From a virus, in the IMG/VR virus record IMGVR_UViG_3300022661_000179: a DNA stretch of 40,096 nucleotides; one strand, written 5' to 3'. Positions 9,974 through 27,358 of the stretch are shown here, one piece after another (within the stretch, counting starts at the first letter, position 1; each line of letters opens with the position of its first letter). A program made the position numbers and the translations under genes. The notes under the pieces were generated by a model. The model was given only the letters and a program-made list of their open reading frames with translations. It had not been told where the DNA came from and did not search any database.

Positions 9974-10180
9974 TAAGAGGAATCCGAAAAATAAAGAATG
10001 TGGAGCGACAGTAGGCGACCTGTGAGTGTAGCTACCAATACCAGGCAACGCGCGTACGGCAGCAGGCAGATGCGGATTAGTTGCAACCCTCTTTTTTCAC
10101 TCGCACCAAGAGAGACGGAGGTTCAAATCCTTCCTTCGGCCGAGTAGTTTAGGCAGGTCCAGAACGCTCTTGGTTCATAT

Positions 10181-10267
10181 GCCCTTGTGATGGAACTGGT
10201 AGACTTCTTAGACTCAGAATCTAAGGTCCGAAAGGGCGTGCGGGTTCAAGTCCCGCCGAGGGCACCA
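10181..10267 (+). tRNA. tRNA-Leu(CAG)
   Basis: loop CTCAGAA; long variable arm; acceptor gcccttg/cgagggc; CCA. Confidence 0.8.
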
Positions 10268-10921
10268 TAGTATAATATCCGGTAGCTAACTCCTGGCTGG
10301 CCTATAAAAAACTGAGAGCTCGTAAAAAATGCATGAGGGTTCGGGAACGGTATTATACTAACCACCGTGGTATGCACGGCAAAAACCGAGGTATAAGAGT
10401 GATATAAAGTGTGTGAGTAAAGCGGAAAGGCTCAATCACCGCCTAGCTGAGGGGCACACGCAGAGTTTGGTCCGGTTCTCTGATTTTTTATCAAAACAAG
10501 ATGGCAGGAAAGTAGAGTCCTGGATATGCGGAGTTCGGTACGCCCCTACTCGCGACATATAAACCTGTGAAGCGCAAGCAGGACTTGTTGAGGTATGTGT
10601 GATTTATCACAGAGTGTGTGGCGAAAAATAAAACTAAACGCGCTCCGGACAACGGGGTGCCGGGCCTGGACGCTTGGCTTGCGGGGGAGGATCCCGTCGC
10701 ACTCACCAATATAGTTGTGGGCGTATAAGACTCAAAACCCTCATCCTCCAATAATACTGCGCAGACTATTGGAGGGCAATATTTGGGCTGTGGGACTGCT
10801 TGGGGTGGTCACCTGTCTGGCAGACAGGACGGCAGATCGGTTCAAATCCGATACGGTCCACCAGGTCTATTTAGACCTCCTTTTCCAAACCATTTAGACA
10901 TCGACCGCAAGAAATTGTGAT

Positions 10922-11319: not shown

Positions 11320-11944
11320 TTGAGGTTGCGGTTAGCCTGACTAACAACAGACCGGCAGGAGCGATTACCTGCACAATGAGTCGTGGGTTTCAGTGCATGG
11401 TCCTTATTATGCGCCGGGTGCGAAAACAATTATAAAGCAGACCCGTTAGAGCGATAATCGCGAGTATCGCCTGCATTCCCATCTGGGCTGGCTCCGCAAC
11501 TGGAAAGAGGAGATTGACTATGAGATCGCTACTCATAGGACGGGTCCACCAAGGAGGATCGGGGATATTCCCCGTAGCTGGTTGTGTCAGCTGAAATCAC
11601 AACTACCGGCAGGTTAAGGTAGAATCCTGCAGATATGGGACATCGTAAAAAGCTGGGTCCTCGTTCCCTTGTCCCGGACTTTGGGTAGCCAACTGCCCTT
11701 TGACAAAAAGGCTTTAGATAGTAAAGTGGATAAGTTGGAATAGTCCATATTTCTTCTCCCCTCAAGCAAGAGGGCTACGTGGGTAGATACAACAGTACCT
11801 AAGCGCAGAATTCCGGCTATAATGAAGTAGGAAGCCGTAGAAGATGAAGAAGCTGTCGAAAAACATTTTTATAGAGGGAATCGTGGGTTGAAATCCCACC
11901 GGAGTCGCGCTCCGAGGACAGAAGACAAAGTCGCCCTCCTTTAT

Positions 11945-14355: not shown

Positions 14356-14511
14356 GCGACTTCTTGAATGAAGTGAGCCGACTACAAGATAGGTTCGGCG
14401 CGACGTTGAAGCAATACATTGGACTGTTTTCAGTAGTGTTGTGGAGTCTAATCTAGGGTTGTGCGGTTTCCACAAGACAGAGTAGGAGAAATCTGAAAGA
14501 AAACGCTCATA

Positions 14512-19037: not shown

Positions 19038-19726
19038 GAAGCAACCGATAACTGATAACCCTCCGCTGAGTAAGCCTGGTGGTTGCGATTTCGACTAATA
19101 TCAGTTTGAACCTTGAAAAGTTTTGCACCTCGGTGAAGAACGAATACCATCGTGCCGAGATCCTCATCCTGCCCGTGGGCGCCAGGAGTCCGAAAAGCAA
19201 TTTACTGACGATAGCCAGTAATAGGTAGATCTGCATACAGTGATGTGTGCGGGCCGCCCTCCGAACGGAGGGGCCTGGATGGAGAGGAGTGCAAAGATAA
19301 TCGCATCTAAAGATACCGTCTTATCGCTCTCGCAATAGACGCCCCTGTGGGGAATAAGCTATGTTAGGGATTAGCTGGTGACTGTTTCAAACCATAGTAT
19401 ACCAATAAGAGAGTCTGCGTTGATGTCCGAGTAATCGGGCTATAAGGTAAGGTCGGGGTACGAGTAGCCCTATCGCAATGACGAGAAGAAAGAAATTGCT
19501 GTTTAGTGTATTTGGGTAATAGCAAAAATTATCAAATAATTCTGAATGGCGGGTGAAAGTTACAGGTAAACAACCCTGTGTAGGACTTGGCTCCAGTAGG
19601 AGCTGGGGCAAGAAGTTTAAGGGTCGCTCCCTTGAGCTCAGACTTGTCTCCCTAGTGATCGAATATAGGTGAAGGTTATAGAGAGTATGTCGAAGGACAG
19701 CAAAACTTTTCAAAGTTCTCAATATG

Positions 19727-19865
19727 AGTGGACTGGCGGAATTGGTAGACGCACCGGACCGGAAACGAATAGTGTCTTGGTCTAAAGCCGCTAACAGCAA
19801 TTCAAATCGGACAGTAAATCCGGCGCCTTATTGGCTTCTTGGTTCAAGTCCAAGGTCCCTCACCA
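19727..19865 (+). ncRNA. Leu/Tyr-type tRNA-like gene with ~47-nt insertion in the anticodon-loop region carrying ACAGCAA
   Basis: D-arm ggcggaattggtagacgc; anticodon-stem strand ccgga is duplicated around the insertion (ACAGCAA at 19794-19800); cgga-CAGTAAA-tccg arm; long variable arm; T-arm cttgg-TTCAAGT-ccaag; imperfect acceptor. Confidence 0.35.
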
Positions 19866-20199: not shown

Positions 20200-20607
20200 A
20201 TGTTATTTGAAACTAATCGTGATAAGGGTCGCGCTGGTATGGCGATAGCAATCGCTTATTTTGGAGCCAATGGATATACAGTAAATGTGCCTCTAAATGA
20301 TACTCAATGGTATGATTTAGTTATTGAAAAAGACGGTGAGTTCAAAACCGTTCAATGTAAAGCAACTGGCAGTGCTGATAATGTAGTTTCTATGAAGAGT
20401 GCGGGTGGCACAAAAGGTAGTGTTTATGATTCTGTACTAAATCATCCTGTTGATTATTTGTTCTGCTTAGATGGCGAAATGCATATGTATGTTATTCCAG
20501 TGCAAGATTTGCGAGATTATGGAGTAAGTAAACAAATTTCTTTGCGTACTCAAAAATCTGCAAATGGACAAGGTTTCCAAACTTATCAATATATGGTGTC
20601 TTTGTAA
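20200..20607 (+). CDS. PD-(D/E)xK nuclease-like protein (Hjc/restriction-endonuclease-like fold)
   Basis: motif YDLVIEKDGEFKTVQCK (D...ExK); similar in pattern to the 25026-25448 ORF. Confidence 0.5.
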   Translation: MLFETNRDKGRAGMAIAIAYFGANGYTVNVPLNDTQWYDLVIEKDGEFKTVQCKATGSADNVVSMKSAGGTKGSVYDSVLNHPVDYLFCLDGEMHMYVIPVQDLRDYGVSKQISLRTQKSANGQGFQTYQYMVSL

Positions 20608-20615
20608 TACCATAT

Positions 20616-20701
20616 GGGTCAGTAGAGTGTAATTGGTACCACCCCCGACTGTAAATCGGGTTCGTATGACATTGTAGGTTCAAGTCCTACCTGGCCCACC
20701 A
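20616..20701 (+). tRNA. tRNA-Tyr(GTA)
   Basis: loop CTGTAAA; long variable arm; CCA. Confidence 0.8.
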
Positions 20702-23508: not shown

Positions 23509-23583
23509 TCCGGTGTCGTTCAATGGCTAGGACGGCGGGCTCTAACCCCGCATATCTCTGTTCGAGTCAGAGCGCCGGTGCCA
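23509..23583 (+). tRNA. tRNA(CUA), amber-reading suppressor-type tRNA #1
   Basis: D-arm gttc-aatggcta-ggac; anticodon arm gcggg-CTCTAAC-cccgc; T-arm ctctg-TTCGAGT-cagag; 1-72 mismatch; G73; CCA. Confidence 0.65.
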
Positions 23584-23658
23584 TGGGGGTTAGCGTAGCG
23601 GTAGCGCGGCGGTCTCTAAAACCGTTGTGGCTGGGTTCGAATCCCAGGCCCCCCGCCA
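23584..23658 (+). tRNA. tRNA(CUA), amber-reading suppressor-type tRNA #2 (Gln-like acceptor tgggggt, G73)
   Basis: D-arm gcgt-agcggta-gcgc; anticodon arm gcggt-CTCTAAA-accgt; T-arm ctggg-TTCGAAT-cccag; U1.C72; CCA; abuts the 3' end of the previous tRNA. Confidence 0.65.
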
Positions 23659-24292: not shown

Positions 24293-24381
24293 AATAGTAC
24301 AGGAAATAAAGAAAAAATCTTCTCCCCTTTCTTTAAAGTTCCTATCTTCTCGGGGGCATTCCTCGGAGTGCCCCATTCTTT

Positions 24382-24583: not shown

Positions 24584-24717
24584 GAGAGCCATACAGCAAA
24601 CCAGCTTGTACTTAATAGTACAGATCGCTACTTCAAGTAGCTTCTATGATGACTTAACAGTCGCGTTTTTAAATGATAGAAAGAAGAATGGTTTTACTAA
24701 AAAAACTTTCGGCTCTC
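24584..24717 (+). ncRNA. ACAGCAA-module (no tRNA-like domain)
   Basis: gagagcc (24584-24590) pairs with ggctctc (24711-24717); atACAGCAA at 24591-24599. Confidence 0.4.
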
Positions 24718-24905
24718 CGGGAATGTGATAATCAGTAGTAGATGTGATGAGGCTCTCGACACTCATCATCGCATAAATGAAAGTTACCACCAAAGGAGAG
24801 TATTTATACAAGACATATACAGCAAAATTTTCAAAATGATAATACTCAATATTTGACAAACAAACATAGAGAATGATCTTTTTAGAAACATCTTATGTCT
24901 TGCGG

Positions 24906-24940
24906 GATGGGTCAACAAAAGGCCCATCCCACTTTTCCCT
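24906..24940 (+). terminator. rho-independent terminator
   Basis: gggatggg...cccatccc stem followed by acttttcc. Confidence 0.55.
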
Positions 24941-24946
24941 TCATAT

Positions 24947-25494
24947 GCGCCGCTAGCTCAGCAGGTTTCAGAGCACCGCCCTTTTCACACAGGAGAAGAA
25001 AGTATTTTCCCAGGAGGTGAATTAAGTGTTAAACACTCATTTCCAAGGTGAAATTACTGAACTCCAAGTTGCCGAATCGTTTTTGACATTGGGGTATCAA
25101 GTGTGTAAGCCTTTGGTATCTGATAGTCGCTATGACTTTATCGTTGATATCAACCATCAGTTATATCGTATTCAAGTAAAGACATCATCATTGAGTGAAG
25201 ATGAAGATTATATTGAGTTTAAGACTCAATCCTCTCATACAAATACTCAAAAGACAGTATATCAATCTTATTCTGCGGATGACATTGATTATTTTGCTAC
25301 AATGCATAATCATCAGTGCTATCTTGTTCCAGTTGATAAAGCTGGTAGTCGTTCTTGTAGATTGCGTTTAAAGCCTACAAAGAATGGTCAGACTAAGAAT
25401 ATCAATTTCGCAAAAGATTTCAAACTTGAAGATACTTTCATCGAATGACTGAAAAAGGCGGGTGTCCTGGGTTCGAATCCCAGGCGGCGCACCA
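24947..25494 (+). tRNA. split tRNA-Lys(UUU)-like gene: 5' half 24947-24985, 3' half 25457-25494, ~476-nt intervening sequence
   Basis: gcgccgc-ta-gctc-...-gagc-a-ccgcc-CTTTT... and ...AA-ggcgg-gtgtc-ctggg-TTCGAAT-cccag-gcggcgc-a-cca; acceptor 7/7 and anticodon stem 5/5 complementary across the gap. Confidence 0.55.
25026..25448 (+). CDS. PD-(D/E)xK nuclease-like protein encoded inside the tRNA-Lys intervening sequence
   Basis: ORF track; motif YDFIVD...QVKT; paralog-like to the 20200-20607 ORF. Confidence 0.55.
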   Translation: MLNTHFQGEITELQVAESFLTLGYQVCKPLVSDSRYDFIVDINHQLYRIQVKTSSLSEDEDYIEFKTQSSHTNTQKTVYQSYSADDIDYFATMHNHQCYLVPVDKAGSRSCRLRLKPTKNGQTKNINFAKDFKLEDTFIE

Positions 25495-25667
25495 AGTCAT
25501 TATTGCTCGACCGGTCTCGCCTTAGTGCACTGGGAGAAATTCCTCGAGACCGCCCTATGGGGTGCGAATAAGGTTTTACAGTTGGAACTAAGTGGCAATC
25601 GGATATCTGGAAATCAGATCCGACCTAAGTCCAAAGATTAGCCTTATTCGCTGTTTTTTATTTTATT

Positions 25668-25695
25668 TGATTTTTATAAAAAAATATGTTATAAT
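25668..25695 (+). promoter_or_regulatory. conserved promoter copy (16-nt spacer)
   Basis: TTGATT 25668-25673, TATAAT 25690-25695. Confidence 0.65.
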
Positions 25696-25727
25696 ATATA
25701 TGTAAGATAAAGAAAGGGGAAAATCCT

Positions 25728-25931
25728 ATGGAAATCAATATTGACAAGGAAATTGATAATCATAGATGCCCTACAATATGTTTATGCACTGTGGCAACAA
25801 CTTGCTATGAGCCAATAGAAAGAGAGCAAAGATGTTATCGTTGTTGGAAAGGATATTGCCAAGAGCATAACATTACAATTATCTACGATAATATACCACG
25901 CCCGTTTAGCTCAGCTGGTCAGAGCACCTGA
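25728..25931 (+). CDS. small Cys-rich protein; 3' end overlaps tRNA-Lys(CTT)
   Basis: ORF track; RBS aaaggggaaaatcctatg. Confidence 0.4.
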   Translation: MEINIDKEIDNHRCPTICLCTVATTCYEPIEREQRCYRCWKGYCQEHNITIIYDNIPRPFSSAGQST

Positions 25932-27306: not shown

Positions 27307-27358
27307 TTCTGCTTAGCAGGTTATAAATATACTATAAAAATTGAAAGGATGTTTAATT

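Follow-up and report, generated by a model that had tools for sequence, protein, structure and literature searches.

We describe here a large mobile family of apparently ribozyme-less intervening sequences in the tRNA genes of bacterial viruses, in which both ends of the insert contribute to an anticodon-matched RNA helix that places the two junctions symmetrically. The family is represented in a viral DNA of 40,096 nucleotides (nt), IMG/VR virus record IMGVR_UViG_3300022661_000179, referred to below as the window (the whole stretch of DNA that was analysed), where a tRNA-Lys(UUU) gene is divided between tRNA nucleotides 36 and 37 by 469 nt that carry a homing-endonuclease gene. Pairing counts across the family and covariation within its Lys group show that the junction-spanning RNA helix at the cassette ends is under selection.

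The split tRNA-Lys(UUU) gene and its junctions

The 5' exon (24947-24985; this and the other features of the split gene lie on the plus strand) comprises the acceptor strand GCGCCGC, the D arm, the anticodon-stem strand CCGCC (24976-24980) and loop nucleotides 32-36 (CTTTT, 24981-24985). The 3' exon (25455-25494) resumes with A37 and A38 and continues with the anticodon-stem strand GGCGG (25457-25461), the variable loop GTGTC, the T arm, the acceptor strand GCGGCGC, the discriminator A and an encoded CCA (25492-25494). A first-pass annotation, made by a model from the letters alone, had described these halves as one tRNA-Lys(UUU), and the sequence indeed reads so. With introns allowed, ARAGORN reports a single tRNA whose span is exactly 24947-25494, which it miscalls as Phe(aaa) through a different junction register.

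Uninterrupted alleles were sought in viral contigs with a pattern in which both anticodon-arm halves are joined as CTTTT/AA. Five uninterrupted tRNA-Lys(UUU) genes matched, among them that of the contig L137 (9705-9783), which is identical to the joined window exons (24947-24985 plus 25455-25494) at 79 of 79 positions. L137 is syntenic with the window phage, with flanking blocks of 68-94% DNA identity and a shared order of tRNA genes; its array reads Gln, Gln, Tyr, Thr, Ser, two suppressors, Leu, Gly, Lys(UUU) and Lys(CUU). Since the L137 allele fits no other placement, the insert occupies 24986-25454, between nucleotides 36 and 37, and the interrupted tRNA is Lys(UUU); the length of about 476 nt given at first pass is corrected by this alignment to 469 nt. 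The same comparison with an intron-less relative disposes of the alternative that the halves are unrelated remnants: the identity of the joined exons to an intact allele identifies them as one tRNA-Lys(UUU) gene and excludes chance. The isoacceptor had also been described as otherwise missing from the array, and this is borne out, the only other Lys tRNA among the 42 tRNAs being Lys(CTT) at 25900.

One detail of the earlier description was abandoned. The start of the insert, CACACAGG, had been likened to a motif of the array, CACACAGCAA; this motif has eight matches at no more than one mismatch, compared with 2.2 expected, the insert start is not among them, and the link is not supported. Related inserts start with UAGAC, CAGAC or UUGUC.

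A conserved RNA helix spans both junctions

When folded to minimum free energy, the window precursor retains its acceptor, D and T arms and has its anticodon stem lengthened into a rod. From the tRNA body outwards, this rod consists of CCGCC/GGCGG, a C32-A38 mismatch, UUUUCA/UGAAAA (helix A), small internal loops, and GAAAGUAUUUUC/GAAGAUACUUUC (helix B), which together give an imperfect duplex of 25-30 base pairs (bp). The fold energy is -159.4 kcal/mol (z = -5.9 relative to shuffled sequences). The 5' strand of helix A (24982-24987) is made of U33, the anticodon 34-36 and insert nucleotides +1 and +2, and its 3' strand (25450-25455) of insert nucleotides -5 to -1 (UGAAA) and A37, so that in the window the last three insert bases, AAA, pair with the anticodon UUU. 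Helix B joins the 5' untranslated region of the insert's open reading frame (ORF), where GAAAGUAUUUUC lies at 24998-25009, to the last ORF codons, where GAAGAUACUUUC lies at 25428-25439.

Homologous loci were collected by scans of viral and metagenomic contigs, which gave 124 loci. At 106 of these (~85%) ARAGORN places the ORF inside a co-oriented split tRNA, and several of the remaining 18 are cut by contig ends or hold split tRNAs that the program missed. After removal of duplicates there are 86 distinct inserts, of 446-699 nt as parsed and mostly of 458-490 nt. When the junction is set at 36/37, the loops are canonical (C/U-U-NNN-A-A) and the host tRNAs are Lys UUU (31), Thr UGU (17), Asn GUU (12), Ile GAU (8), Arg UCU (4), Ser GCU (3), Met CAU (2) and others, at least ten types in total. 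The score by which registers were picked favoured anticodon pairing, and the 36/37 position was fixed independently of it in the window and in Enterococcus phage EFP01. A rod-like fold of the same design was found in every tRNA type.

Pairing in helix A was counted over 79 distinct inserts. Positions 33/37 are paired in all 79, and 36/-3 and +1/-4 are Watson-Crick pairs in every insert; 34/-1 is Watson-Crick in 77 of 79, and 35/-2 in 63, with G-U in 15 more. A Watson-Crick or G-U pair is found at +2/-5 in 78/79 and at +3/-6 in 67/79, past which mismatches are common. The strongest constraint falls on the 5 bp that extend across both junctions (97-100% paired), and positions 4-8 bp beyond these have a mismatch in at least half of the inserts. 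Within the first seven pairs of helix A, G-U occurs 35 times and A-C once. Because of this 35:1 ratio, the helix is taken as selected in sense-strand RNA and not as a DNA palindrome; terminal inverted repeats, or any other DNA-level cause of the helix, were rejected on the same ratio and on the lack of a target-site duplication.

The complementarity is specific to each locus. Among 36 distinct 7-bp variants of helix A, 26 are fully paired and on average 6.72 of the 7 positions are paired, compared with 4.18 of 7 (0.7% fully paired) when strands are combined across anticodon types. The terminal triplet of the insert tracks the anticodon (UUU/AAA, UGU/ACA, GAU/AUC, UCU/AGA, CAU/AUG and, with a G-U pair, GUU/AGC), and within the Lys group +1/-4 and +2/-5 covary (U-A/C-G and A-U/C-G). 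Helix B varies in sequence from locus to locus with its complementarity kept, and cognate end-to-end duplexes average -15.3 kcal/mol against -7.7 kcal/mol for non-cognate ones. Free-standing homologues of the nuclease have no terminal stem of this kind. An internal loop of the Asn group, CUGA/CUGAUG, could be read as a K-turn; this is plausible by eye only and was not relied on.

The junctions themselves, between 36 and +1 and between -1 and 37, both lie in helix A, each immediately 3' of the central 3-bp segment formed by the anticodon and the insert end. Their geometry is thus that of a two-fold axis with a 3-nt 3' stagger. Moreover, the left side and centre of the RNA duplex equal in sequence the DNA target of the empty allele.

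The encoded nuclease

The insert is almost wholly taken up by an ORF of 140 amino acids (25026-25448, plus strand), as had been noted at first pass; the non-coding part amounts to just 46 nt, 40 before the ORF and 6 after it. This sole long ORF of the insert starts with GTG, 8 nt downstream of a Shine-Dalgarno-like AGGAGG read from the sequence (25012-25017, plus strand), and contains no in-frame stop codon. Its product matches the Pfam family PF11645 with 109.7 bits (cut-off 26.1; E 1.5e-31), 132 of its 140 residues being covered, and matches the sequence of PDB entry 2OST, the homing endonuclease I-Ssp6803I, with E 1.9e-8, so that the restriction-endonuclease-like fold is that of a solved structure. 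Residues D37, Q50 and K52 are invariant among the homologues and E12 nearly so; they align with the YD and QVK of 2OST and are taken to be the catalytic residues of the family. By these matches, the ORF product is a clear member of the I-Ssp6803I type of PD-(D/E)xK homing endonucleases, in agreement with the homing-type PD-(D/E)xK nuclease proposed in the first-pass annotation. About 200 close relatives of the protein occur in metagenomes.

A second nuclease-like ORF had been noted beside tRNA-Tyr, and this too is a PF11645 protein (20200-20607, plus strand; E 3.5e-16). This free-standing paralogue stops 8 nt short of tRNA-Tyr (20616-20701), is 87.6% conserved in L137 and has no terminal stem. 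More distant free-standing PF11645 genes lie before tRNA-Ile in Pectobacterium phage My1 and after tRNA-Asn in Kuttervirus and in haloarchaeal viruses. In one of the latter, Halorubrum virus HSTV-4 (L134, ~1640-1700), the T arm and 3' acceptor strand of tRNA-Asn recur (…GGGUUCGAGUCCUGUCCUCGGCGCU) behind the PF11645 gene, which itself lies downstream of the tRNA. The array of L142, a syntenic relative of the window, holds three PF11645 genes, one before tRNA-Tyr (3940-4347), one inside tRNA-Lys(UUU) (10001-10423) and a third (11390-11824) that ends within the first bases of tRNA-Lys(CUU).

In-frame stops are found at conserved positions of the ORF in several related loci (L011/L040, L024, L034, L036, L120 and L123), and 9 of these 11 stops are TAG. 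The window has two tandem suppressor tRNAs with the anticodon CUA (23509-23658). Together, the TAG stops and the suppressor tRNAs suggest that some of these phages decode TAG as a sense codon.

Distribution and mobility of the cassette

The family samples come from the human gut and from other metagenomes. One cultured member is Enterococcus phage EFP01 (Herelleviridae, Schiekvirus; NC_047796), in which an ORF 40.7% identical to that of the window lies within a split tRNA-Asn at 105242-105777. Twenty-nine other Schiekvirus records match the EFP01 flanks in two pieces, with about 930 bp where EFP01 has 1401 bp, and two of the sister phages, EFDG1 and 113, carry an ordinary tRNA-Asn(GTT) at the insert site. 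In alignment, EFP01 has the tRNA-Asn plus 463 nt between CTGTT and AA.

The EFP01 insert has a feature of its own. Its last ~28 nt (L001 2900-2933), which encode the C terminus of the nuclease, are similar to part of the 5' half of the tRNA itself (2440-2469), with ~22 of 28 positions identical. The part of the tRNA concerned is the D arm and anticodon stem, and MAFFT placed the uninterrupted tRNA on the copy in the insert. Nothing like this terminal copy is found in the window insert.

Near-identical inserts sit amid unrelated sequences. The window insert has a nearer counterpart in an unrelated phage than in the syntenic relatives: the L054 insert is 96.8% identical to it, with exons that are 77% identical and 300-nt flanks that are unrelated. 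The syntenic relatives L141-L143 carry an insert just 83% identical to the window's, and L137 has none. At least 16 further pairs have inserts at least 90% identical and flanks without similarity. Since near-identical inserts occur between such flanks, the cassette is mobile between phage genomes and arrives at the same tRNA position. With its precise presence or absence at one target site and its horizontal spread, it behaves in these comparisons as expected for homing, and the mobile insertion that the first-pass annotation had suspected is supported by EFP01 and its 29 sister phages as well as by the L054 pair.

No bacterial genome was found to carry the cassette, the scan having given three weak partial matches only, which offer no clue to a prophage or host. 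A neighbouring ORF of 154 amino acids, used to find syntenic relatives, led to two loci, neither with useful tRNA context.

Two cassettes depart from the usual arrangement. In L035 (1167-1661) and L084 (~930-1470) they lie between complete tRNA genes and are bordered by nothing more of a tRNA than helix A and a stem resembling an anticodon arm; acceptor, D and T arms are absent. The stem of L084 is longer by 6 bp (AUAGAU/AUCUAU), and its 'anticodon' GGC still pairs with the insert end GUC.

A search for ORF-less derivatives of the insert gave none that was convincing, and turned up other odd tRNA-like genes. These have short ORF-less insertions of 49-173 nt in or beside the anticodon arm (L024 101-236, L036 540-675, L111 157-282, L029 2088-2236, L055 409-554 and L108 554-817), and three of them have conserved motifs in common (GUGUCCAGUGACA…GGGCAGCAC…CAUUAAAAUCUGUU).

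Possible removal of the insert by proteins

The reading that we favour, at close to an even chance, is that the insert is an intron without ribozyme, which would be removed by proteins with the rod as the splicing substrate. A dimeric or tetrameric protein endonuclease would recognise the rod and cut both strands at the junctions, the tRNA body would keep the exon halves together after cutting, and the anticodon loop of tRNA-Lys(UUU) would be closed by an RNA ligase, either RtcB or an Rnl-type enzyme of the phage or host. Homing would be driven by the encoded enzyme acting on DNA, where its cut would fall at the pseudo-palindromic anticodon arm of uninterrupted alleles. The array has no other Lys(UUU), yet for Glu and Gln it holds both the UUN and the CUN isoacceptors. 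RNA ligases that seal breaks in anticodon loops are common in large tRNA-carrying phages (PMC7824862).

In a self-contained version of the scheme, which we consider unlikely, the cassette's own PD-(D/E)xK protein would cut both the DNA of the empty allele and the precursor RNA helix that mimics it. Cleavage would flank the anticodon in each substrate, with a 3-nt 3' stagger, after which an RNA ligase of the phage or host would reseal the RNA. The protein presumably forms tetramers, is related to Holliday-junction resolvases and has a fold distantly related to that of the archaeal splicing endonuclease.

The first-pass annotation had named group I, group II and bulge-helix-bulge features as ones to look for. 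The searches gave no group I or group II match, and of the bulge-helix-bulge only the placement of the sites was found: over the 79 inserts, pseudo-two-fold sites each lie 3' of a central helix, and the intron pairs with anticodon-loop bases. The motif itself, with two 3-nt bulges and a 4-bp helix, is replaced by a continuous helix with junctions 3 bp apart. Bulge-helix-bulge was rejected as a candidate, no register giving 3-nt bulges when the window and EFP01 were examined by hand.

Several points weigh against splicing by proteins. Besides the junction helix without bulge-helix-bulge, no splicing endonuclease or RNA ligase was found among the scanned ORFs of the window, within 10 kb of the cassette in relatives, or in the first 50 kb of the EFP01 annotation, and we know of no enzyme that cuts a continuous RNA helix with a 3-nt stagger. 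Recent homing alone can account for intact exons. In about six distinct loci (L004/L016/L017, L030/L112, L128/L129, L085) the exons have decayed while the ORF is intact. Finally, L035 and L084 keep the rod without a surrounding tRNA body, which means that the rod can exist or survive with no tRNA to repair; alternatively, these two could be ectopic insertions that took an anticodon arm along.

The insert as a possible unspliced homing-endonuclease gene

The strongest competitor, less probable than protein splicing in our judgement but a serious one, is that the insert is never spliced. It would then be a selfish homing-endonuclease gene at its own cut site, which kills a dispensable tRNA, and the rod would serve the nuclease mRNA. 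The tRNA body could fold and be processed by RNase P and at its 3' end, releasing a compact, end-protected transcript in the manner of a 'tRNA scaffold'; or the rod could be an element for RNase III-type processing or translational control. Intact exons would mark recent invasions only.

Much of the above speaks for an unspliced insert. The cassette is very mobile, as seen from the many insert pairs at least 90% identical between unrelated flanks and from the window insert, which resembles the insert of an unrelated phage more than those of the syntenic relatives. The loci with decayed exons and intact ORFs, the rod-only cassettes between complete tRNAs in L035 and L084, of which the latter has a stem that goes past the equivalent of the anticodon stem, and the lack of splicing enzymes in the regions scanned all count on the same side. 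Moreover, the insert is present in just 1 of 31 Schiekvirus phages, which implies a genus without dedicated machinery.

The helix, however, is not what an unspliced insert would predict. Constraint peaks at the 5 bp over both junctions and drops 4-8 bp on, whereas stem stability alone predicts otherwise, and the terminal triplet is re-matched to each new anticodon in at least ten tRNA types. Free-standing members of the nuclease family need no stem. A complete cloverleaf is kept in ~85% of the loci (106/124), including deep branches whose nuclease is only 35-45% identical, and the cassette lineage has persisted through long diversification, for which homing genes usually need phenotypic neutrality.

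Tests for a catalytic RNA

Self-splicing by an undetected catalytic RNA, either a group I core, highly reduced or divergent, that overlaps the ORF, or a small ribozyme of a new kind formed by the rod, is improbable. In its favour, the precursor as a whole folds well below shuffled controls (the z of -5.9 given above), and the sole tRNA insert described before with a nuclease of this family, that of cyanobacterial tRNA-fMet, is a group I intron (PMC13011429, PMC1995217). With Rfam at gathering thresholds, the window nevertheless has no match to a group I, group II or self-cleaving ribozyme; nor is there any match to RF00028 or another ribozyme within 24700-25900 at E<=10, or to ribozyme families in 20 related loci at E<=1. 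On these permissive thresholds a group I, group II or small ribozyme identity was rejected.

The architecture of the insert points the same way. A group I core needs about 200 nt, compared with the 46 nt of insert RNA outside the ORF, and the first-pass remark that too little non-coding RNA is left for such a core holds for the window, where, as in the 20 loci, Rfam finds no group I match. Synonymous codon entropy averages 0.95 bit across 30 Lys-type ORFs, with only short constrained stretches and no long block; by this crude test, such free synonymous variation argues against a core of ~200 nt concealed within the ORF. The conserved terminal G of group I introns is missing from the 3' end of the insert; the last base is A in the window and varies with the anticodon elsewhere. 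Pairing with the 5' exon is made by the insert's 3' end, and not by a segment near its 5' end, where a group I guide would be. In addition, the 3'-OH of nucleotide 36 and the phosphate of the 3' junction are on opposite strands, 3 bp apart.

Hardly credible, finally, is that a host double-strand RNase such as RNase III cuts the rod with no religation, leaving a tRNA in two pieces, either inert or with a function other than decoding: the 25-30 bp imperfect duplex would suit such an enzyme, and RNase III does excise the intervening sequences of some bacterial 23S rRNAs without ligation, but its 2-nt overhangs cannot yield a 7-nt anticodon loop, a tRNA broken in that loop cannot decode, and the anticodon pairing in every tRNA type would be left unexplained.

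Comparison with known systems

The closest known relative by protein family is I-Ssp6803I, encoded in a 655-nt self-splicing group I intron of Synechocystis tRNA-fMet (PMC1995217). This cyanobacterial intron is inserted at 33/34 (PMC13011429), and the target of its enzyme is a 23-bp pseudo-palindrome (PMC3384342). The phage cassette shares its niche, the tRNA anticodon loop beside the anticodon, with a pseudo-palindromic anticodon arm as target. It differs in its length (469 nt, of which 46 are non-coding), in lacking a group I core, in its position at 36/37 in at least ten tRNA species as opposed to 33/34, and in its anticodon-pairing helix, which a group I intron does not need. The geometry of the phage junctions also matches the way in which I-Ssp6803I cuts DNA, to both sides of the anticodon with a 3-nt 3' overhang.

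Archaeal introns with a bulge-helix-bulge are spliced by proteins and include rRNA introns with LAGLIDADG homing-endonuclease genes (I-DmoI, I-PorI). Like them, the phage cassette has no ribozyme and carries its ORF at the apex of a rod made of the intron ends; the intron pairs with exon bases beside the anticodon, and the junctions are pseudo-symmetric about a two-fold axis, 3' of a short central helix. Unlike them, it lacks the 3-nt bulges, has a central helix of 3 bp and not 4 bp, and lies at 36/37 instead of 37/38. The cassette hosts are bacterial (Enterococcus for EFP01), and we know of no EndA in bacteria. The archaeal protein-spliced introns that bear endonuclease genes come nearest to how the cassette would work, though here in viruses of bacteria.

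Other systems resemble it in part. SegB of phage T4, cited in PMC8421152, is a free-standing homing endonuclease in a phage tRNA cluster. Such nucleases, and likewise the PF11645 genes beside tRNA-Asn, -Ile and -Tyr, are associated with tRNA genes and promote their own inheritance, but they sit between genes, leave the tRNA intact and have no terminal stem, whereas the cassette gene is inside the anticodon loop. In phage Aeh1, nrdA is split by the homing-endonuclease gene mobE without intron or intein. There, too, a bare endonuclease gene divides a host gene in two; split proteins, however, work as two polypeptides, whereas a tRNA broken at the anticodon needs religation to decode. The engineered 'tRNA scaffold', in which an RNA of interest is expressed in place of the anticodon loop, likewise bears its insert on a stem that continues the anticodon stem, and its tRNA body gives processing and stability. 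It is artificial, non-coding and not removed, and serves only as a model for an unspliced insert.

Novelty and significance

Protein-dependent tRNA splicing is regarded as an archaeal and eukaryal trait. Within the literature that could be searched, the tRNA introns described in bacteria and phages are self-splicing group I and, rarely, group II introns (PMC13011429). That literature gave no description of ribozyme-less phage tRNA inserts, and the cyanobacterial group I intron is the one case it gave of this nuclease family within a tRNA gene. What is new is a homing endonuclease in a tRNA anticodon loop without ribozyme and with a conserved helix of its own; the nuclease family and the niche were known.

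If the insert is spliced, phages that infect bacteria use an enzymatic route of tRNA splicing that has not been described, and the cultured phage EFP01 allows direct testing. Enzymatic splicing, once shown, would be categorically new for the bacterial world; and if the cassette protein itself splices, it would be the first protein-catalysed tRNA splicing in that world, carried by the intron. If the insert is not spliced, homing-endonuclease genes exploit tRNA genes as expression scaffolds, at the loss of the tRNA.

There is also a practical side. ARAGORN at default settings missed the window Lys(UUU), and in the EFP01 record the split tRNA-Asn is not listed as a tRNA and its ORF is annotated as hypothetical. 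Since standard tRNA finders miss such split genes, phage tRNA repertoires are under-counted.

Other features of the window

The window is a phage-type tRNA array, with 42 tRNAs by ARAGORN and with a ROOL RNA, a drum RNA and 40-odd tRNAs by Rfam. The full-length ROOL RNA (327.8 bits) lies at 19105-19718 and is followed, 8 nt on, by a 139-nt tRNA-like gene (19727-19865) with extra sequence in the anticodon region, which ARAGORN labels 'SeC, intron 42'. Similar elements occur in L137 (4435-4573) and L141 (3594-3747). EFP01 has a ROOL RNA (L042 2133-2719) about 460 nt downstream of its split tRNA. The drum RNA of the window (78.1 bits) lies within the tRNA array at 14401-14511.

Just 3' of the split tRNA-Lys, an 88-nt hairpin (25564-25651) followed by a T-run matches the 3' domain of the OLE RNA (model positions 437-594) with 53.4 bits against a gathering score of 50 (E 2e-11). 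This hairpin is independent of the insert, because the region 25510-25723 is 80% conserved in the uninterrupted L137.

Downstream of the array, 29944-31503, 33835-36315 and 38225-39103 encode, respectively, a DUF2828/DUF7788 protein, a protein with major-vault-protein shoulder and repeat domains, and a nucleotidyltransferase. The last has a weak match, below the cut-off, to RlaP (E 0.0064), a family of the 'RNA repair pathway'. The region of the DUF2828, vault and nucleotidyltransferase genes may be an RNA-repair-type neighbourhood, though no ligase is seen in it. A DUF2828 gene also follows the array in L141 and L142.

Directly behind the array and ahead of these genes, at 27341-29769, are an EcoRI-like adenine methyltransferase (E 1.3e-98) and a GmrSD_N-HNH nuclease, a pair also present in L143. 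GC-rich hairpins followed by T-rich tracts lie 8-17 nt upstream of the split tRNA-Lys (24904-24930) and of tRNA-Gly (24353-24374), and ahead of the next module, at 25667-25695, is a sequence that resembles a strong promoter (TTGATT-17-TATAAT with TG).

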